Source of the DNA: Desulfosudaceae bacterium
GTDB taxonomy: Bacteria > Desulfobacterota > Desulfobacteria > Desulfobacterales > Desulfosudaceae
NCBI GenBank assembly: GCA_963674745.2
Contig: CAXXDV010000001.1
Location: forward strand, 896,001 to 960,000
Direction: 5' to 3'
Length of the DNA stretch: 64,000 nt
Part shown: one piece after another, positions 5,570 to 62,290 of the stretch
Position numbering within the stretch: position 1 is the stretch's first letter
Layout of the letters: every line of letters starts with the position of its first letter
Position numbers and translations under genes: made by a program
The notes under the pieces: generated by a model
Seen by the model: the letters and a program-made list of their open reading frames with translations, nothing else
Database searches by the model: none
What the model was told of the DNA's origin: nothing

Positions 5570-5905
5570 TTAATATATACAAGCATCTAATATTGACAGG
5601 ACTTCAGACAACAGTTCGTCGTTTCGTCGCTCGATACGCTTAACACGACGAGCACGGAAATCAACTGATTTTACTTGTTCAACCATGACGAAACCGGTCA
5701 ACTCGCTTGCCTTTGGAATTGGTACGTGAAAGGGAAAACCACGATCTGTATTTGTAATAGGACACACAATAGCCAAACCTGTGCTGCTATTGAACAGGTC
5801 CTTGCTGACAACTAGTGCCGGTCGACGCCCTTTTTGCTCATGACCAGCTTGCGGATCAAATGTAATCGCGATTAAGTCTCCCTGTTTGGGAATATAAGTC
5901 GCCAT
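5570..5905 (-). CDS. mazF: MazF/PemK toxin
   Basis: FDPQAGHEQKGRRPALVVS, CPIT. Confidence 0.95.
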   Translation of the reverse strand: MATYIPKQGDLIAITFDPQAGHEQKGRRPALVVSKDLFNSSTGLAIVCPITNTDRGFPFHVPIPKASELTGFVMVEQVKSVDFRARRVKRIERRNDELLSEVLSILDACIY

Positions 5906-6154
5906 TTACCAGACCTCTTTACCGACTGGTTTTCCCCAATCGGTTTCTTTGGCTTGGTGTTCTTTGGGAATTTTCGCCACAAGATCCTTGAGTTCATATT
6001 TCCTGCGCACTCTTTGGGCTGGGGTGACGATTAAGGAACCATCTTTCACAGAAATATTGACGTTATCGCCCACATTGATTTGTGCGTCCGAAAGCAAGGC
6101 CTTTGTGATGCGAAGGCCTTGGCTATTTCCCCATTTTTGAATTTTTGCAAGCAT
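5906..6154 (-). CDS. mazE: MazE/AbrB antitoxin
   Basis: KIQKWGNSQGLRI, C-terminal DWGKPVGKEVW. Confidence 0.95.
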   Translation of the reverse strand: MLAKIQKWGNSQGLRITKALLSDAQINVGDNVNISVKDGSLIVTPAQRVRRKYELKDLVAKIPKEHQAKETDWGKPVGKEVW

Positions 6155-6348: not shown

Positions 6349-6723
6349 TTATCTTTTTGGAAAATATTTTACTTTGCTCAAATCTTTGAAATCTGAATCT
6401 TGAGTCCATATCGTTGCGTTATATTCTTTTGCAGTTGCAATGATTATGCTATCAGCCATCGGAATGCCATTTTCCAAGCTTATTTTTGAGGCTGAAATAG
6501 CCAATGAACTCGTCAGGTCCACGACAGAACCTTTCCGCATCGCAACGACTGCCTGTAAGGCTTCATCCTCTCCAGATTCTCGAAGGACTACCTTAAAGAC
6601 CTCATAAATAGTTACTGTCGGGACAACAAGTGACGCCGTGTCTTTTAAGGGGGTGAGAAAGTGTTTAGCGTTTGGCTCATCAGCAAAATATGCAAGCCAA
6701 CCTGAAGAATCGACAATATTCAT
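6349..6723 (-). CDS. vapC: VapC PIN-domain toxin
   Basis: MNIVDSSGWL, ADSIIIATA, WTQDSDF. Confidence 0.92.
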   Translation of the reverse strand: MNIVDSSGWLAYFADEPNAKHFLTPLKDTASLVVPTVTIYEVFKVVLRESGEDEALQAVVAMRKGSVVDLTSSLAISASKISLENGIPMADSIIIATAKEYNATIWTQDSDFKDLSKVKYFPKR

Positions 6724-6926
6724 ACTCTGTCTTCCTCTCGTTCGAATTCCGTGTTTATCCCCTTGATAAAGCCACGCAGCTCTTTAATGTCTTTTTCTGG
6801 AATAAGTTCAATTCGACCAATGTATTCAACTACTTGCATTTTTTGCCCAGGACGAATCTGTAGTGCCTGCCTGACTGATTTTGGTATAACAACTTGAAAC
6901 TTGGGTGATACGGTTACAGTTTGCAT
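6720..6926 (-). CDS. vapB: AbrB/MazE-type antitoxin (VapB)
   Basis: VSPKFQVVIPKSVR; GGAGG RBS; overlaps vapC start. Confidence 0.9.
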   Translation of the reverse strand: MQTVTVSPKFQVVIPKSVRQALQIRPGQKMQVVEYIGRIELIPEKDIKELRGFIKGINTEFEREEDRV

Positions 6927-6957
6927 GATAAAACCTCCATCGATATTTTTTCGTAAT

Positions 6958-6986
6958 ACGATAGCACTATCGATACGGCTTGTCAA
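6958..6986 (-). promoter_or_regulatory. vapBC promoter/operator
   Basis: TTGACA-N17-TATCGT; short palindrome CGATAG...CTATCG. Confidence 0.65.
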
Positions 6987-7221: not shown

Positions 7222-7344
7222 AACGTCTTCAGCCAATGGGCGCCAGGGCTTCCTCTGACTGTCTTAAAGATGGTTAATGTTCAGTTTCCCCAAAATGTTC
7301 AAAACTCGAGTGCCCTGGCTATCATTTGGGCTGCTTGGTTAAGT
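7218..7344 (-). repeat. attC, family B
   Basis: AAC...GCCAGGGC/GCCCTGGC stem...GTTAAGT; homologous to 8784, 9957, 53110, 61683. Confidence 0.85.
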
Positions 7345-7631
7345 GCCCGCATTATTCAGAAAGACCTTAACGACAACATGGGCAAATAAAATAAAATGAT
7401 ATTTTTCTTTTTACGCTTTGTCCATCACGAACTTATGAAAACGGGTAGGTCTCTTTTCATCCGGACAAATAAAGGCGCATTATCATTCGGCCGCGCCAGT
7501 TCGAAAATAAAATTTATCTTTACTGGCCGAAAAATTCAACTTGGTGACAATTACCATTTTGGCAACGAATGTCGAATTCAGCCAAAATTCTTTTTTTTAT
7601 TTTTTTCCCGTACAGATTCAGTGCACTTAAC
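7345..7631. other. ORF-less gene cassette, copy A (candidate structured RNA/ssDNA)
   Basis: Bounded by GTTAAGT/ACTTAAC; no cassette-strand ORF; paralog at 10083-10366. Confidence 0.7.
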
Positions 7632-7746
7632 GTCCGCCACCACCGGCGAGCAGGGTTTGCGGACTTCTTAAATGTTAGTTCAACACCACACTATGCCAAA
7701 ACTAAGGCAGCACGCCCCTGCGAGTCTGTGTGAGTGGCGTTGATGT
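7625..7746 (-). repeat. attC, family A, 2-bp deletion in R''
   Basis: ACTTAAC start; ends CGTTGATGTG versus CGTTGTTATGTG in sister copy. Confidence 0.8.
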
Positions 7747-8118
7747 GAAATTTTTTATTGTTAATCCATTTTCCTCGAATAATGTATTATACAAGTCAAT
7801 CTTTCCGCCTTCTTTAATAAACCTTTCGATTTCATGATACATTTCATCTTTTCTGTTTAATGTAAATAGACAAAGGGACAAACAGAAAGACGCAATTTCT
7901 TTTTTGGGAAGAAGTTCTACAGCACGTTTTGCGTAAGGGATTGCGTTTTCGGAATCATTGAGTTCTGAATAATATAAAGTTGCTATCATTGACGCAGATA
8001 CACCGGATTTAGGGTACTTTTCAAGTATATGTTTAAATTCAATAATGGCTTCCTTTACTTTACCTTGGTTCTTTAAGTCAAAGGCGTGCTCATACATTTT
8101 TTCTTCTTCTGAATTCAT
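7702..8118 (-). CDS. TPR-like cassette protein
   Basis: GKVKEAIIEFKHILEKYP and ENAIPYAKRAVELLP TPR-like helices. Confidence 0.75.
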   Translation of the reverse strand: MNSEEEKMYEHAFDLKNQGKVKEAIIEFKHILEKYPKSGVSASMIATLYYSELNDSENAIPYAKRAVELLPKKEIASFCLSLCLFTLNRKDEMYHEIERFIKEGGKIDLYNTLFEENGLTIKNFTSTPLTQTRRGVLP

Positions 8119-8134
8119 ATGCTTAATCTATTAC

Positions 8135-8259
8135 ACATAACGTCCGCCACCACCGGCAAGCAGGGTTTACGGACTTCTTAAAATGTTAGTTCAACACCAC
8201 ACTATGCAAAAACAAAGGCAGCCCGCCCCTGCGAGTCTGTGTGGGTGGCGTTGTTATGT
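8135..8259 (-). repeat. attC, family A
   Basis: ACATAAC...GTTATGT. Confidence 0.9.
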
Positions 8260-8772
8260 GCCCAATAATTTAATCATATATATTAAAACAATGAGTTCTA
8301 ATAATGCGACAAAAGCACCGGCTATCACATGCGAGAATTTGACAAACCAATAAATATCGACCCGATCTGCCAGCCAGCCAATTCTGAACAAATATATTCC
8401 ATAAACTATTATTGCAGTTGGTAGGCCAAAGCTCCAGCGGAAACTACCTTCCGGAATACCTTGTAATACAAAAGTCACCAAGACTATTAAAGTAAAAGCT
8501 GCCAAAAATATGGCAAATAAAGCATGTATTCGAAAAATTTGCTTCACGAAACGTTGCTTGATTAATACATACAAACCACTGAGAAAGATCAGTAAACAAA
8601 AAGGGATATACCAAAATAAAGGTTGTACTTCGTCTAAAGAACCTTCATCGTAATAGATGGCAAACATTCCTCCAATTGCGAGCAAAAAGACAGTACCCGA
8701 ACATTTGACATTCAAGCGGAAAATATTTGCCAAGTCGACATTGTCATATTTTTCAACAAGGTGCGTAATCAC
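8254..8772 (-). CDS. Multi-pass membrane cassette protein
   Basis: About 5 hydrophobic segments; stop lies in the attC R'' box. Confidence 0.75.
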   Translation of the reverse strand: MITHLVEKYDNVDLANIFRLNVKCSGTVFLLAIGGMFAIYYDEGSLDEVQPLFWYIPFCLLIFLSGLYVLIKQRFVKQIFRIHALFAIFLAAFTLIVLVTFVLQGIPEGSFRWSFGLPTAIIVYGIYLFRIGWLADRVDIYWFVKFSHVIAGAFVALLELIVLIYMIKLLGT

Positions 8773-8783
8773 TTACATCCTGC

Positions 8784-8911
8784 ACATAACGGCGGCCGCC
8801 AATGGGAGCCAGGGTTTCCACTGACTTGCCGTAAAGATGGTTAATGTTCATTCCCCTCAAAAGTGCAAAACCCGGGTGCCCTGGCGATCCTCTTGCGATG
8901 CCTTGTTATGT
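8784..8911 (-). repeat. attC, family B
   Basis: ACATAAC...GTTATGT. Confidence 0.9.
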
Positions 8912-8933
8912 GTTTACGTTTTTTTTCTGTATC

Positions 8934-9263
8934 TTATGTCTCTTTATTCGAGGAATAGTTTTTAGTAACAATAATATTTATTATCAGCACGATAATTACA
9001 AAGACCGTAAAACAAAAATAAATTATAAACAAAGAAACAGAAGCTTTTTCGGAGATATCTTGCACTTTCGAAACATCTTTTAAGACCCCAATAATTTTTA
9101 TGGGGTCTGTTGTGTTATCAATCTCAGAACTTAAATCAGAAACTAAGGAGCTCGTCTGTGTACTTGGAAAACCCATAAGCACAAAAAAAAGAACTGATAT
9201 TGATACAATCAAACCGATAACATTGACACCAGATAGCCAAGATAGGTCTTTTCTTTTTTTCAC
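8934..9263 (-). CDS. Two-TM cassette protein
   Basis: GGAGG RBS, GTG start, two hydrophobic helices. Confidence 0.75.
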   Translation of the reverse strand: MKKRKDLSWLSGVNVIGLIVSISVLFFVLMGFPSTQTSSLVSDLSSEIDNTTDPIKIIGVLKDVSKVQDISEKASVSLFIIYFCFTVFVIIVLIINIIVTKNYSSNKET

Positions 9264-9295
9264 ATATTACCTCCGTACTTTCATAGCTGTGTGAC

Positions 9296-9419
9296 ACATA
9301 ACGTCTGCCACCACCGGCGAGCAGGGTTTACAGACTCAGCAAAAGTTCGTTCAACACCAAACTGTGCCAAAACCAAGGCCGCCCGCACCTGCGAGTCCGT
9401 GTGAGTGGCGTGGTTAGCA
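9296..9419 (-). repeat. attC, family A
   Basis: ACATAAC...GTTAGCA. Confidence 0.9.
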
Positions 9420-9421
9420 CG

Positions 9422-9943
9422 TTAATCAGTTAGCTTTCTTTTCAGAAATTCATATATCTTTGCATAATCCTTGTTCCCAAAATAAATCAAAATGCAAATG
9501 AGTGATACCATAAATATTATAAATACTATAAACCATTTATATAAAAGTATATGGCTGATAATCTGGGGTAACGAATTGAATTTAGAAAAGGCATCATTGA
9601 ATACTCCAAAAAGTAGAATCAATAAGAATAAGCATATAGCTATAAGCCAGTACCGTAACAGAAATGATAATGAAATTTTACCATTTAACGAAACCTTTCC
9701 ATCACGCTCATTGAATTTTCCAACGAATTGAGGCCTCAAAGGAGAGCCCAGAAACCATCGATAATAATAAATAATCACATTATCTTTTTTGATTTTTCCG
9801 ACAAAATTGTTCTGAAAGATCGTGTTGAAATGATTTGTCTCTGTTCCCATCTGAAGTGTTGCTATTGAACTTTTTAAATCATAAGCACTTGTAATATCAA
9901 CATCTTGCTTCTTCCAAAAAATCATTTTAATTATTCTTATCAT
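9422..9943 (-). CDS. Membrane cassette protein
   Basis: Fills cassette; two C-terminal TM helices. Confidence 0.75.
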   Translation of the reverse strand: MIRIIKMIFWKKQDVDITSAYDLKSSIATLQMGTETNHFNTIFQNNFVGKIKKDNVIIYYYRWFLGSPLRPQFVGKFNERDGKVSLNGKISLSFLLRYWLIAICLFLLILLFGVFNDAFSKFNSLPQIISHILLYKWFIVFIIFMVSLICILIYFGNKDYAKIYEFLKRKLTD

Positions 9944-9956
9944 TTTTCAGAGTGCG

Positions 9957-10082
9957 TGCTAACGTCTGCAGCCAAAGTAGCCAGGGCTTCCAGTGACTGA
10001 CTTTAAGGTGGTTGATGTTCAATTTCCCCCGAATGTTCAAAAGCCGAATGCCCTGGCTATCATTTGGGCTGCTTGGTTAAGT
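9957..10082 (-). repeat. attC, family B
   Basis: TGCTAAC...GTTAAGT. Confidence 0.9.
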
Positions 10083-10366
10083 GCCCGCATTATTGAGAAA
10101 GACTTTAACGACAGCATGGGCAAATAAATTAAAATGATATTTTTCTTTTTACGCCTTGTCCATCATGAACTTATGAAAACGGGTAGGTCTCTTTTCATCC
10201 GGACAAATAAAGGCTCAAAATCAAACAGTCCCGCCAGATCAAAATACAGCTTATCTTTACTGATTGAAAATATCAATCTGGTGACAATTTCCATAGTGGC
10301 AACGAAGATCATTTTTCGTCAAAATTCTTTTTTTATTTTTTCCCGTACAGATTAAGTGCACTTAAC
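10083..10366. other. ORF-less gene cassette, copy B (first position after attI)
   Basis: Homologous to 7345-7631. Confidence 0.7.
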
Positions 10367-10380
10367 TATGTTATTAGATA
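10360..10380 (-). other. attI-like site of array 1
   Basis: Minus strand TCTAATAACATAG/TTAAGT, resembling attI1 CCTAAAACAAAG/TT; no attC hairpin upstream; lies next to integrase stub. Confidence 0.7.
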
Positions 10381-10618
10381 GGCTGCTTGATTTCATCCCG
10401 TTTCTGTATACTTAACCATAAATTTGATTAACTACAAATAATTTTTCATTGGACGATGAAATGGTTTTTATGCCATAAATTTAGATAATTAGGTTGTTCT
10501 GACTTTATCTATATAAATTTATTGACGCACGTTTAATAAAGAATTAGGGTCTTAAACGGGCATGCTTGATAATTTTTCATTTTACTTAGCACGCAATCTT
10601 CAGGTTCAGGGAGGAACT

Positions 10619-10873
10619 ATGGAAAAATTCGCTGATTATCTCATTTCAAAGTCAATCATACCGGAAAACCAGATTCCGTACTATATCGGGTGGGTGAAAG
10701 CCTTTTTCCGGTTCCTGGACAAAGACACGTCCGAAAATGTAACGGCAGATGAAATTGACCGGTATATTAAAGGACTGGTCAAACTGGTTGAAGCGTGGCA
10801 GTTAAAACAGGCCAGGCAGGCGATCCAGGCGTTCTGTTTTTTCCAGGGCCAGCCACCTCCGAATATGCCTTAG
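10619..10873 (+). pseudogene. intI: Truncated integron integrase (N-terminal SAM-like domain only)
   Basis: Divergent from array, GGAGG RBS; MEKFADYLISKSIIPENQIPYYIGWVKAFF...WQLKQARQAI resembles long-form IntI N-termini; no catalytic domain. Confidence 0.7.
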
Positions 10874-10983: not shown

Positions 10984-12891
10984 TCAGATGGCTCGCGCCG
11001 CCTCGTATCCTTCGTGAACCGCGAATACGATCTTTCTGGGCTGCTTGGCATCGCCGATCACGACCACCTGGTAATCCTTCAGCTCTTCGGCCAGATCACT
11101 ATTGGGTCTTGAGCCGATGGCCACAACAACCGTATCGGCTGCAATGATCTGCTGTTCACCGTTGACCTCGCCGACAATACCATCAGCCGTGATTTCCTTG
11201 ACGGCAAAGGCGTTGATCTGTTCGATACCGCATTCGTTCAGGCACTGCATGATAACCCACTTGGTACCCGGCCCGATGTTGTGCCCCATCTTGTCCAGCA
11301 TTTCCAGCTGGACCACTTTCTTGCCTTCTTTGGCCAGGTGCAGACAGACATCACAACCGGTGCCGCCGCCGCCGATAACCGCCACCGTCTCTCCGGGCAC
11401 GGGTTTGCCCACCAGCACATCCCAGGCGTGCATGACATTGTCCCGATCCACGCCTTTGATGGGCGGAGAAGCCGGAACAGCGCCTGCCGCGTATATTATC
11501 ACATCCGGTTTTTCAGCCGCCACGGTCTCTTTATCAGCGGTCTGACCGAGCTTGACCGTTACGCCCAGATCCTTGAGCATGGCCGTAAAATATTCCCCGA
11601 CCAGGGCAAACTCGCCGAAATCCGGGGTCTGGGAGGCCAGTTTCAACTGCCCGCCCAGGCGGTCACTGTTATCGATCAGCACCACTTCGTGCCCGCGGAC
11701 AGCGGCCACCCGTGCGGCTTCACAACCACCTGGGCCACCGCCGATAACCAGCACCTTCTTTTTCTCGGCTGCCGGCTGGAGCTCGCCGTAAAGTGACTCC
11801 CGGCAGGCCTCGGCATTAATGGCGCAGGTCACCGGTTTGCCTTCAAACAGGCTGTCCATGCAATTCATGCAGGCGATACACCGGCGGATCAGCTCGGGAC
11901 GGCCGGCCTTGACCTTGTTGGGCAGATCGGGATCGCACACCAGCGGCCGGGCCATACAGACCATGTCGGCTTTGCCCGAGGCCAGGATCTCCTCGGCCAG
12001 TTCGGCGCTGTTGATACGGTTGGAGGCCGCCACCGGGGCGTGATCAAGCGCGCTTTTGATGCCTTCGGCCATCCAGACATAACCGCCGCGGGGGACATTC
12101 ATGGTGATCATGGGTTCCAGGGATTCATGCCAGCCGGCCGTAATGTTAAAGGCATCCGCCCCGGCATCTTCCCATATTTTCGCGAACTGCTTCATATCAT
12201 CCAGCTTGTTGCCGCCCGGCACCAATTCATCTCCCACCATACGGACAAAAAGCGGGTAATCATCCCCCACATTTTCCCGGATGGACGCAATGATCTCCGT
12301 ACCGAACCGGGCCCGGTTCTCCAGGCTGCCGCCGTACGCGTCGGTCCGCAGGTTGGTGGCCGGGCTCATGAACTGGCTGATCAGGTAGCCGGCGCTGGCA
12401 ATGATCTCCACGCAGTCATATCCGGCGGTTTTGGCCCGGGCCGCAGCCGCGCCAAAGGCGTCTACGATCTCTTTGATCTCTTCAACCGTCAGGGCACGGG
12501 GTTTTTGTTTGGAAAAAATCGGCGGGGCCACGTCCGAGGCACTGACCGCCTGATTGCCGGTCAGAAACGTCATTTCATAGCGGCCCGGATGCCACAACTG
12601 GATGCTGGCTTGAGAATCATATTGATGGATTGCTTTGACCATCCGCTCATGTCCGGGCAGAAATTTATCATCGGAAATATCCAGCCCCATCACCATGCCC
12701 GGTACCACCGGGCTGATACCGACCGTTACCAGTCCGGCACCGCCCTTGGCCCGGCGTTCATAATAGGCCACGGCCGCGTCATTGATTTCGCCCATGGCGA
12801 CGTTAACCGTCAAAGCCGGCATGATGATTCGATTGGGCATCGTCATTGATTTAATGGTCATCGGTTCCATCAAGTGTTTGAATTCGGACAT
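10984..12891 (-). CDS. NADH:flavin oxidoreductase / 2,4-dienoyl-CoA reductase-like (FadH family)
   Basis: OYE barrel (GYLISQFMSP, NLRTDAYGGSLENR), CIACMNC Fe-S motif, GGGPGG. Confidence 0.9.
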   Translation of the reverse strand: MSEFKHLMEPMTIKSMTMPNRIIMPALTVNVAMGEINDAAVAYYERRAKGGAGLVTVGISPVVPGMVMGLDISDDKFLPGHERMVKAIHQYDSQASIQLWHPGRYEMTFLTGNQAVSASDVAPPIFSKQKPRALTVEEIKEIVDAFGAAAARAKTAGYDCVEIIASAGYLISQFMSPATNLRTDAYGGSLENRARFGTEIIASIRENVGDDYPLFVRMVGDELVPGGNKLDDMKQFAKIWEDAGADAFNITAGWHESLEPMITMNVPRGGYVWMAEGIKSALDHAPVAASNRINSAELAEEILASGKADMVCMARPLVCDPDLPNKVKAGRPELIRRCIACMNCMDSLFEGKPVTCAINAEACRESLYGELQPAAEKKKVLVIGGGPGGCEAARVAAVRGHEVVLIDNSDRLGGQLKLASQTPDFGEFALVGEYFTAMLKDLGVTVKLGQTADKETVAAEKPDVIIYAAGAVPASPPIKGVDRDNVMHAWDVLVGKPVPGETVAVIGGGGTGCDVCLHLAKEGKKVVQLEMLDKMGHNIGPGTKWVIMQCLNECGIEQINAFAVKEITADGIVGEVNGEQQIIAADTVVVAIGSRPNSDLAEELKDYQVVVIGDAKQPRKIVFAVHEGYEAARAI

Positions 12892-53109: not shown

Positions 53110-53234
53110 TATGAACGTCCGCCACCAATGGCAGCCAGGGCTTCCACTGACTTGTTTAAAGGTTTCGGTTGTTCAGTACCCCCGATTTTTCAAAACCCGA
53201 GTGTCCTGGCTGTCCACTTGAGCTTGATTTCTAC
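53110..53234 (-). repeat. attC, family B, degenerate R''
   Basis: TATGAAC...family B body...TTTCTAC (expected GTTCTAC). Confidence 0.75.
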
Positions 53235-61682: not shown

Positions 61683-61811
61683 CCCGAACGGCGGCAGCCA
61701 ATGGGAGCCAGGGCTTCCACTGATTTGCCTTAAAGACGGTTAATATTCAATTTTTTCAACTTTTCAAATCCCGAATGCCCTAGCTATCTTTTGGGCTGCC
61801 TTGGGTTAGCC
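61683..61811 (-). repeat. attC, family B
   Basis: CCCGAAC...GTTAGCC. Confidence 0.9.
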
Positions 61812-62153
61812 CTCGCTATCAGGATTATATTCAATAGTTGTAATAACTTCATAAAGATTGTCGTATTTGAAGTTGAAACCCAACCAAGAACTATAAACAG
61901 AACCATTTTTCTGGAATATTTCATCTTCCCGGAATTTTCTTTTAAGCAGCAACAGAAGCTCTTCTTTTGTTGTATTAGGGCCAATGTAAAAACAAATTTC
62001 CTTTAGCTCAGAGAATGATGATTCAGCCTCATATAATTGCTGGTTGCGGGTTTCCAGTGTCAATCCTATATCGATAAATTTCCCAAACCAGAAAAAATTA
62101 TTTACAATAAAGACAGTGATAATTGCGATGGCGATGATAATTTTCTTTTTCAT
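61806..62153 (-). CDS. Secreted/anchored hypothetical cassette protein
   Basis: MKKK + hydrophobic stretch; stop in R''. Confidence 0.75.
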   Translation of the reverse strand: MKKKIIIAIAIITVFIVNNFFWFGKFIDIGLTLETRNQQLYEAESSFSELKEICFYIGPNTTKEELLLLLKRKFREDEIFQKNGSVYSSWLGFNFKYDNLYEVITTIEYNPDSEG

Positions 62154-62166
62154 AATTTTTCTGTAG

Positions 62167-62290
62167 GGCTAACGTCCGCCACCACCGGCGAGCAGGGTTT
62201 GCGGACTTCTTAAATGTTAGTTCAACACCACACTATGCAAAAACTAAGGCAGGGCGCCCCTGCGAGTCTGTGTGAGTGGCGTTGTTATGC
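62167..62290 (-). repeat. attC, family A
   Basis: GGCTAAC...GTTATGC. Confidence 0.9.

Follow-up and report, generated by a model that had tools for sequence, protein, structure and literature searches.

The window analysed in this work, that is, the whole stretch of 64,000 nt from contig CAXXDV010000001.1 (positions 896,001-960,000) of assembly GCA_963674745.2, belonging to a Desulfosudaceae bacterium, harbors two integron cassettes on its minus strand, at the positions where a first-pass annotation of this DNA had placed them. Copy B (9963..10365, 403 bp) and copy A (7224..7630, 407 bp) both run from G|TTAAGT to GACG|TT, and the period of copy B is the one given by a tandem junction (10362 to 9960) found in metagenome contigs. 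Each cassette comprises a non-coding content, located at 10084..10365 in copy B (35% GC, versus 50.5% for the genome) and at 7345..7630 in copy A, and has its own attC of about 123 nt, as had been annotated: in copy B it lies at 9961..10083, with R'' (ACTTAAC) at 10083-10077 and R' (GTT) at 9963-9961, and in copy A at 7222..7344, all of them on the minus strand. As single-stranded DNA, the attC of copy B folds into a long imperfect hairpin (z -2.25), and that of copy A gives a weaker fold (z -1.13). Copy B was correctly described as the first cassette after attI: the attI region and intI leader (10367..10618) are related to those of a complete integron at C1:2.117 Mb, and are adjoined by an N-terminal remnant of an integron integrase (84 codons, 10619..10873, plus strand). 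This remnant matches Phage_int_SAM_4 (E 2.4e-7) and displays 49% identity over 85 aa to a frame (2117116-2117370) lying a short way upstream of where TIGR02249 matches the intact intI near C1:2117407. No similarity was found between the cassette content and the attI region and intI leader of the window, nor between this content and the four attI regions.

The cassette had been reported as duplicated, which understates its abundance, as the genome contains 27 full copies distributed in seven arrays. All 27 start with G|TTAAGT and end with GACG|TT, and the sequence outside these limits is unrelated. When the 27 flanks upstream and as many downstream were compared, five proved to be another copy (tandem pairs), and apart from these just one further flank pair is common to copies on each side. 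The features that define an integron cassette were found together, namely a G|TT-bounded unit, differing flanks, a 3' attC hairpin, and arrays with attI and integrase. At least 222 attC sites were counted in the genome, in 12 loci, and the 27 copies represent about 12% of these attC-bounded units, with the attC family of copy B occurring 143 times. This is the largest cassette family of the genome, filling 23 of 210 inter-attC intervals, followed by a second short multi-copy family (8 copies) displaying no sequence similarity to it, and 120 singletons. Three intact integron integrases, with TIGR02249 matches above the cut-off, adjoin copy-bearing arrays; the first slot after attI is taken by a copy in two of the four attI-bearing arrays (the window and C3:29520), and 14 of the 27 copies are located in a 50-kb array lacking intI (C1:1.481-1.531 Mb).

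Most copies have flanks of their own and five pairs are tandem, so that it was the integron's own recombination that spread them, and a gene-less, multi-copy cassette spread by integrase is very probably what these copies represent. The sequences show the cassette to be a discrete, G|TT-cut unit, repeatedly excised and inserted again by the host integron integrases, both at attI and at further attC sites, and now occupying 27 slots in seven arrays. Integron recombination would make use of one strand and be resolved by replication, a mode of resolution reported for cassette insertion (PMC3458562), by which copy number may rise; because of this one-strand recombination and replicative resolution, an excised circle could be inserted again into a chromosome in which the donor copy is still in place. 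Given a good attC and the lack of a costly gene, a cassette would then multiply in the manner of selfish DNA, although for this selfish spread the argument is one from pattern.

The copies fall into two sequence types, B (n = 10, 97-100% identical to copy B) and A (n = 17, 83-87%), and young, near-identical copies coexist with older, decayed ones. The near-identity initially noted between the two copies of the window holds for their attC and for the 3' portion of the content, which are almost the same; divergence is concentrated in the 5' ~145 nt, where 34 differences between the consensus sequences of the types are located, against 2 in the remaining ~255 columns. Mosaicism was also detected, with one attC variant joined to contents of both type A and type B, and a B-like patch in one type-A copy. 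Recombination between copies would keep the 3' part and the attC near-identical and give rise to such mosaics. A modular functional design could instead underlie this sharp difference in conservation between the 5' and 3' parts; in such a design, a constant 3' scaffold (hairpin and A/T-rich tract) is combined with an exchangeable 5' module, A and B being two alleles; a regulatory RNA or promoter module of this kind, controlling cassette expression or integron activity via the seven arrays, seems improbable to us. Were it true, the A/B dimorphism would represent two specificities and not gene conversion.

Outside this genome, no homologue was found among 412 related genomes and in plasmid and phage collections. 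Copies were absent from all 12 other genomes of the family, and 400 genomes of the order gave no real match, with only A-rich matches of 20-51 nt in 44 of them; a same-genus genome (G010, 99% complete) has nine matches to the attC family and no cassette copy. Blastn against plasmids and phages yielded no match, and an exact-motif scan of viral contigs gave none either. Two further sets of candidates were discarded as chance: the single match of an exact-pattern scan of genome contigs falls, by eye, within an antitoxin-like ORF that belongs to an unrelated MAG, and five loci from a scan of metagenome contigs match over just 19-21 nt. Since these scans rely on exact words or BLAST, diverged relatives could be missed. 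Pieces 92-100% identical to the cassette were recovered in short contigs from three metagenome studies; the metagenome evidence comes from four runs kept as contigs, which show no starts, strands or levels. The family is thus paralogous within its genome with relatives in close kin only, and restriction to this lineage is the best reading of the sequence comparisons.

Regarding coding potential, the cassette strand has no ORF longer than 49 codons. The statement that this strand carries no ORF is wrong for copy B, in which a 49-codon ORF lies at 10163..10312 (minus strand); it is exclusive to type B, the frame being open in 10 of the 27 copies, whereas the remaining 17 read 16-24 codons before a stop, and the reading frames are not common to types A and B. 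One could regard it as a very small protein gene (43-49 codons) on the cassette strand, intact in type B and amplified as a frameshifted pseudogene in type A, given that the frame is open in all ten type-B copies, that type A yields a similar C-terminal peptide on skipping one base, and that degenerated genes have been reported among gene-less cassettes (PMC11014356). However, all 17 type-A copies have a stop or frameshift, three of them lacking the ATG as well, neither ATG is preceded by a Shine-Dalgarno-like sequence (by eye), and the A/B differences within the frame are mostly radical replacements (by eye). Moreover, the ORF has no relative among the 26-86 aa proteins of a 5.8-billion-cluster collection, and the cassette has no Pfam match, so that we consider a small protein gene highly improbable.

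On the opposite strand, mechanically called ORFs encode 73 aa in type B and 78 or more aa, open-ended, in type A, and are frame-shifted between the types. Within type A, changes in this ORF are distributed 23:17:21 by codon position, and 16 are synonymous versus 45 non-synonymous, with 21% synonymous expected by chance. Gene-less cassettes have been delimited by the absence of ORFs >150 bp (PMC1382264) or >210 bp, i.e., 70 aa (PMC11014356); given opposite-strand ORFs of 73 and 78 or more aa, the length criterion fails on that strand. By the other measure, protein matches and a synonymous-site pattern among the copies, the cassette behaves as gene-less, with neither being found: the only relative of the cassette peptides belongs to the same element on a 1239-bp contig.

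The first-pass annotation had further proposed a conserved secondary structure. The nested stems on which it was based, TTGTCC/GGACAA and ATGAAAA/TTTTCAT, are indeed present in both copies, at 10156..10206 in copy B (10156-10161 with 10201-10206, and 10173-10179 with 10192-10198) and at 7418..7468 in copy A; nevertheless, neither folding z-scores nor covariation support a conserved fold. The whole contents fold no better than shuffled sequence (z +0.40, +0.13, -0.04 and -1.14), the RNAalifold covariation term amounts to -0.34 kcal/mol, both sides were changed in 1 of 54 pairs, and the two nested stems, 13 pairs in all, showed no both-sided change. A 5-bp stem presented as compensatory does show both-sided changes in three pairs, but all six rows carrying them are type B, and they therefore count as a single evolutionary event, the A/B split. 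The centre pair of this stem, broken in the majority of type-A copies, fails to form in 9 (plus strand) or 15 (minus strand) of the 22 distinct rows. For the 66-nt stretch of the copy B nested repeat, z was -1.78 on the minus and -1.72 on the plus strand, and the ssDNA fold of the hairpin was unremarkable (z -1.64 and -0.89). In the main hairpin, two single-base changes preserve pairing, in the form of G-U, on the cassette strand but not on the other; this hints faintly at a fold and is offset by two breaks.

These results bear on the proposal that the cassette is a gene for a structured non-coding RNA, or an ssDNA signal. In one version, the RNA would be ~200 nt long and read from the strand opposite the cassettes; it would have a conserved hairpin in its 5' part, followed by a variable middle and, at the end, a hairpin with a T-run. 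In line with this, the plus strand shows a -10/-35-like match in each copy (10108-10135 and 7370-7397), and in both types a hairpin followed by a T-rich run is located on that strand near 10300-10345 and 7560-7600; shuffled versions fold less well than the variable middle of copy A (z -2.17 and -2.26), and the two G-U-preserving changes could be added to these. A precedent is also available, as sRNA-Xcc1 of Xanthomonas campestris is a trans-acting small RNA derived from an ORF-less integron cassette (cited in PMC6557892); the cassette described here resembles it in being ORF-less, with a possible RNA product, and differs in being known from sequence alone. Against such an RNA, the middle of copy B shows no comparable folding (z -0.06 and -1.00), a terminator scan found nothing within the cassette, and the stems at the putative terminator would differ between types. 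An Rfam search of the whole window gave no match at the gathering score, and at E<=10 all seven matches (E 0.8-8.6) were located outside the cassette content, although Rfam may not include sRNA-Xcc1; tRNA or tmRNA genes were not found either. Independent compensatory changes supporting base pairs were not seen among the 27 copies, which is the lack of significant covariation across homologues that had been named beforehand as telling against the proposal, here within the limits of copies that constitute two lineages plus minor variants and hence give the covariation test low power. With covariation reduced to one lineage split, no excess of folding energy and no Rfam match, the structured-RNA proposal is left unsupported and we regard it as unlikely to be correct; the stems are inherited sequence and not a selected fold. 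Thus, from the original interpretation, the mobile non-coding module stands, since its G|TT boundaries are exact, its flanks mostly differ and no frame is conserved, and what finds no support is the more specific idea that covarying stems hold together a structured RNA, an ssDNA signal or a protein decoy.

A different function for a gene-less cassette is to provide promoters. Of 29 gene-less cassettes from Vibrio, the majority had sense-strand promoter activity (Blanco et al., 2024; PMC11014356), and promoter cassettes have been measured by reporters, RT-qPCR and 5'-RACE in that work and by Tansirichaiya et al. (2019; PMC6557892). The cassette described here shares with them a high AT content, the lack of a gene and the location in long arrays, and has a downstream-pointing sigma-70-like match, TGGACA-17-TATCAT (10134..10162 in copy B, 7424-7396 in copy A, both on the minus strand), directed towards the attC and the next cassette. 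It differs in length, 403-407 bp versus 491-666 bp for the Vibrio promoter cassettes, and in that their activity was measured, while here it is a prediction by analogy. The match agrees at 10 of 12 positions and is a lead only, since the region has 17 sigma-70-like sites in total versus 11.5 +/- 3.1 in shuffles, a chance level for AT-rich DNA; its -10 hexamer varies in 8 of the 27 copies, and the one RNA run identified contained 0.04 of the words. By analogy with the Vibrio gene-less cassettes, the AT-rich content may start transcription into neighbouring cassettes, and we would give an even or slightly better chance to some promoter activity being seen in a reporter assay.

That such activity is the reason why the cassette is kept appears doubtful to us. 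The corresponding explanation, namely a selected promoter cassette, kept and multiplied because it restarts transcription in very long arrays that have no integrase at all or lie at a great distance from a Pc, would account for the 14 copies in the array without intI, and for the position of the region's best sigma-70-like match in the conserved 3' part of both copies; it would also agree with how Vibrio gene-less cassettes mostly behave (PMC11014356). On the other hand, the copies are not spaced out but clustered (five pairs are tandem), the -10 hexamer belongs to the more variable segments within the 3' part, the same-genus genome G010 has the same attC family and manages without a copy, and in-silico promoter prediction is unreliable, its calls having failed to predict measured activity in the Vibrio study (PMC11014356). 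We therefore hold this selected role as a tentative and rather less likely explanation. Our preferred reading, which we consider probable, is that of a lineage-restricted, gene-less, paralogous integron cassette family that spreads selfishly and possibly starts transcription into its neighbours.

Repeated gene-less cassettes are already known from Vibrio, and the family described here adds no new kind of element. Boucher et al. (2006; PMC1382264) reported paralogous non-coding cassette families in Vibrio chromosomal integrons, numbering as many as 45 copies (two V. vulnificus strains have 45 and 34) and having close relatives within the group only, and proposed gene conversion and a selfish or regulatory role, the alternatives being selfish DNA or a promoter/RNA. 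As described there, the Vibrio cassettes are, like ours, complete units with their own attC, no conserved ORF and many copies per genome, conserved over their whole length, with relatives in close kin only and no synonymous-site excess. Differences include the host, here a Desulfosudaceae bacterium; sequence similarity that is limited to its own genome and a few metagenome contigs; the presence of seven arrays, three with intact intI, in place of one superintegron; and two sharply distinct types with a near-identical 3' half. Homologous recombination, within arrays as well as between them, could also make use of the copies, which are 400-bp repeats with up to 100% identity. Being the commonest cassette of its genome, with three intact integrases, young and decayed copies and two types, the family offers a convenient substrate for measurements of attC efficiency and promoter activity. 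Whether repeated gene-less cassettes are selfish DNA, or promoters and RNAs serving the integron, has been a question since 2006, for which this family, in a genome that has at least 222 attC sites, provides a clean case outside Vibrio.

The cassette array of the window lies to the left of an integron integrase gene remnant of 84 codons (10619-10873, plus strand). An intact intI elsewhere in the genome has a TIGR02249 match, and the frame immediately upstream of that match shares 49% identity with the remnant over 85 residues; the remnant also matches the Pfam family Phage_int_SAM_4 (E 2.4e-7). About 110 bp separate its end from the 3' end of a convergent ORF of 635 aa (10984-12891, minus strand), which we take to resemble an old-yellow-enzyme or 2,4-dienoyl-CoA-reductase-type flavoprotein, and the integron platform seems to be truncated near this gene. 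Between 7702 and 9943 every cassette ORF is encoded by the minus strand, which is therefore the cassette strand. Read in this direction, copy B (10365->9963, 403 nt) and copy A (7630->7224, 407 nt) both start at G/TTAAGT, and in each of them an attC of about 123 nt, which begins with ACTTAAC and ends at the next G/TT, comes after about 280 nt of content. The GTTAAGT and ACTTAAC motifs, taken as cassette bounds in the first-pass annotation, are indeed present; they correspond to the R' and R'' boxes of a single attC that was split through linear insertion. Copy B directly abuts the attI region and is therefore the first cassette, as had been proposed. On the plus (bottom) strand, the attC of copy B folds into a long imperfect hairpin (z -2.25), and the fold of the copy A attC is weaker (z -1.13). 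At the far end of the array two toxin-antitoxin pairs were found (5573-6154 and 6352-6986, both minus strand), in one of which the toxin is PemK/MazF-like (E 5e-28) and the antitoxin of MazE type, while in the other the toxin has a PIN domain (E 2e-18) and the antitoxin is of MazE/AbrB type. The window also contains, well away from its main array, a single isolated attC-like site (53114-53224; C1:949114-949224, C1 and C3 being contigs of the genome) and an isolated pair of such sites (61687-62287; C1:957687-958287).

The two cassettes had been described as a duplication; both copies are real, and a search of the 3 contigs (5.55 Mb) of the genome to which the window belongs revealed that they belong to a 27-copy family, all members being full-length matches to the cassette content and the same 27 being recovered by BLAST with the attC included in the query. 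Type B comprises ten copies whose identity to copy B is 97-100%; for the other 17, which form type A and include copy A, it is 83-87%. The 27 copies are spread over seven arrays, with two copies in the window, 14 at C1:1.481-1.531 Mb, 3 at C1:2.100-2.116 Mb, 1 at C3:29.5 kb, 5 at C3:1.821-1.858 Mb and 2 at C3:2.330-2.348 Mb. In the alignment, all copies have identical start and end crossover points, and the sequence outside is unrelated. When the 500-nt flanks were compared (27 upstream and 27 downstream), five corresponded to another family copy (five tandem pairs), and beyond these only one further flank pair per side was shared; since the flanks are mostly distinct, the copies come from separate insertions and not from block duplication.

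A census with six attC queries detected at least 222 attC sites across the genome in 12 loci, eight of which hold 5-84 sites. The inter-attC intervals (n=210) included 120 singletons, 21 pairs, 3 triplets, 2 quadruplets, one 8-member family and 23 members of the 27-copy family (four of its copies were not captured as intervals). All 27 copies together represent about 12% of the cassette pool of the genome. Three integron integrases scored above the TIGR02249 cut-off, each adjoining a copy-bearing array, and the family occupies the first slot in two of the four attI-bearing arrays (the window and C3:29520).

The integron load of this genome is unusually large, with three intact integrases plus the window remnant, and the largest array (84 attC sites, 50 kb) is without an adjoining integrase. 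Another short cassette family is also multi-copy, with 8 members that have 266-271 bp of content and a 68-codon ORF on the cassette strand (C1: 1515151-1515421, 1518499-1518769, 1518891-1519156, 1522845-1523114 and 2115052-2115322; C3: 37262-37532, 1826215-1826485 and 2344279-2344549). No sequence relation was found between the 8-copy and 27-copy families; the attC of the former is the closest relative (85-87%) of that of the latter, and two of its copies directly adjoin copies of the 27-copy family. Furthermore, an insert of 2.65-2.9 kb occurs in four copies inside cassette arrays (C1:1737889-1740631, C1:2102631-2105284, C1:2280500-2283397 and C3:2332169-2334931). In each, a 255-aa frame matches the integron-integrase model over the model's N-terminal half, at about 86 bits, which is below the cut-off, and the C-terminal piece is separate, with one TAA interrupting it; a mobile element or a broken recombinase gene that targets the arrays would be possible readings.

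Differences between the two types are concentrated at one end, the A and B consensuses being distinct at 34 columns in the initial ~145 nt of content (cassette strand) and at 2 of the remaining ~255 (3' content and attC). Content identity is 96.5-100% within type B, 86-100% within type A and 82-88.5% between types. One attC variant occurs with contents of both types (two of B, one of A), and a B-like patch is present in one type-A copy, thus the copies recombine with each other.

Regarding coding capacity, the statement that the cassette strand lacks an ORF missed a 49-codon ORF in copy B (10163-10312, minus strand). With the frame anchored at a conserved internal ATG, comparison of the 27 copies showed that it is open for 43 codons in 10/10 type-B copies and reaches a stop after 16-24 codons in 17/17 type-A copies (the ATG being absent in 3); no Shine-Dalgarno-like sequence was seen by eye before either ATG. 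The opposite strand contains mechanical ORFs of 73 aa in type B and of at least 78 aa in 13/17 type-A copies, the latter open-ended into the neighbouring attC, and their middle parts lie in different frames in A and B. Within type A, substitutions in this ORF were distributed 23:17:21 over codon positions 1:2:3, with 16 synonymous and 45 non-synonymous changes, where random change predicts 21% synonymous. None of the three cassette ORFs had a Pfam match, no relatives of the 49-aa ORF were found among proteins of 26-86 aa, and the only protein matched by the 73-aa ORF was the same element read through a tandem pair in a 1239-bp contig. From these sequence comparisons we conclude that the cassette is to be regarded as non-coding, with the formal caveat that the opposite-strand ORFs are longer than the limits in published definitions of gene-less cassettes.

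The first-pass annotation had also attributed a conserved secondary structure to the two copies and named a structured RNA among the possible readings. The Rfam search of the whole window gave no match at the gathering score and seven weak matches at E<=10, all outside the cassette content, and ARAGORN found nothing. Folded as RNA, the whole content was no better than dinucleotide shuffles (copy B, z +0.40 minus and +0.13 plus; copy A, -0.04 minus and -1.14 plus). The 66-nt stretch with the nested stems (TTGTCC/GGACAA and ATGAAAA/TTTTCAT) gave z -1.78/-1.72 as RNA and -1.64/-0.89 as ssDNA, and the diverged middle folded somewhat above chance in copy A (-2.17/-2.26) and no better than chance in copy B (-0.06/-1.00). 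RNAalifold on all 27 copies yielded a covariation term of -0.34 kcal/mol, with 1/54 predicted pairs changed on both sides. The three proposed stems were scored on 22 distinct rows. None of the 13 nested-stem pairs changed on both sides; their four departures were all breaks on the plus strand, and two G-U-compatible changes and two breaks on the minus strand. The 5-bp stem (CGGCC/GGCCG in copy A, CAGTC/GATTG in copy B) had been considered compensatory; three of its pairs changed on both sides, all six such rows being type B, which amounts to a single A/B split, and its centre pair was unpaired in 9/22 rows (plus) and 15/22 (minus). The shuffle control (0/500) is the outcome expected among related sequences and does not constitute evidence. 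Overall, the z-scores, RNAalifold and stem counts do not support conserved secondary structure or the structured-RNA interpretation; two lineages give such comparisons little power, so a fold retains some probability.

No copies of the cassette were found in 12 other genomes of the taxonomic family, and its attC family was present in three of four checked relatives (9, 7 and 4 matches, 73-85% identical), with no match in the fourth, which is only 71% complete. Among 400 genomes sampled from the order, 44 had only A-rich matches of 20-51 nt; collections of genome, metagenome and viral contigs, scanned for exact patterns, yielded only chance matches or none, and blastn against plasmid and phage collections gave no match. 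A k-mer index of public runs returned 20 runs from 12 studies with part of the stretch, four of which were compared with it. Run X1, possibly the genome's own source, covers everything. In run X4, a contig of 184 nt is identical over 9960-10103 and links 10362 back to 9960, the tandem junction; this junction also occurs in run X5, which has in addition a 210-nt contig with 9 differences over 10083-10214, running on into a type-A-like middle; in run X6, which comes from marine sediment, a contig of 161 nt shows 13 differences over 10060-10214. Therefore, environmental DNA from three other studies contains the family at 92-100% identity, and these pieces may come from the same or closely related species.

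With the integration of these findings, we describe a discrete integron cassette that has been inserted independently many times, including at attI, without a conserved ORF; the first-pass observation is confirmed in part, the element being real, mobile and non-coding and the structured-RNA reading finding no support. It corresponds exactly to the class of Vibrio non-coding cassettes described by Boucher et al. (2006; PMC1382264), which according to that account tend to be paralogous (one family having 45 and 34 copies in two V. vulnificus strains), have relatives either very close or absent, show no synonymous-site pattern, with gene conversion possible, and were read either as selfish elements or as promoters or RNAs serving the integron. 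The activity of gene-less cassettes as promoters was measured by Tansirichaiya et al. (2019; PMC6557892). The content of the present family has 35% GC against 50.5% for the genome. The best sigma-70-like match of the 3.6-kb region is TGGACA-17-TATCAT (10/12), which both copies have in their conserved 3' part, directed at the next cassette; the scan gave 17 sites compared with 11.5 +/- 3.1 for shuffled sequence, and 8/27 copies vary in the -10 hexamer. Since, as reported by Blanco et al. (2024; PMC11014356), most of 29 gene-less Vibrio cassettes had sense-strand promoter activity and software failed to predict it, we consider it somewhat probable that the cassette acts as a promoter, and selection for such activity a tentative possibility.

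In integron recombination the bottom strand alone is exchanged and completion occurs by replication (PMC3458562). Copy number would be gained in this way, as an excised circle could re-enter a chromosome where the donor is still present; a gene-less cassette that costs little and has an efficient attC could then multiply, and recombination among copies would homogenise them. The kind of element is thus already known and the family itself is new, and it stands out in making up about 12% of the cassette pool, in being spread over seven arrays and in having two types that are sharply distinct.
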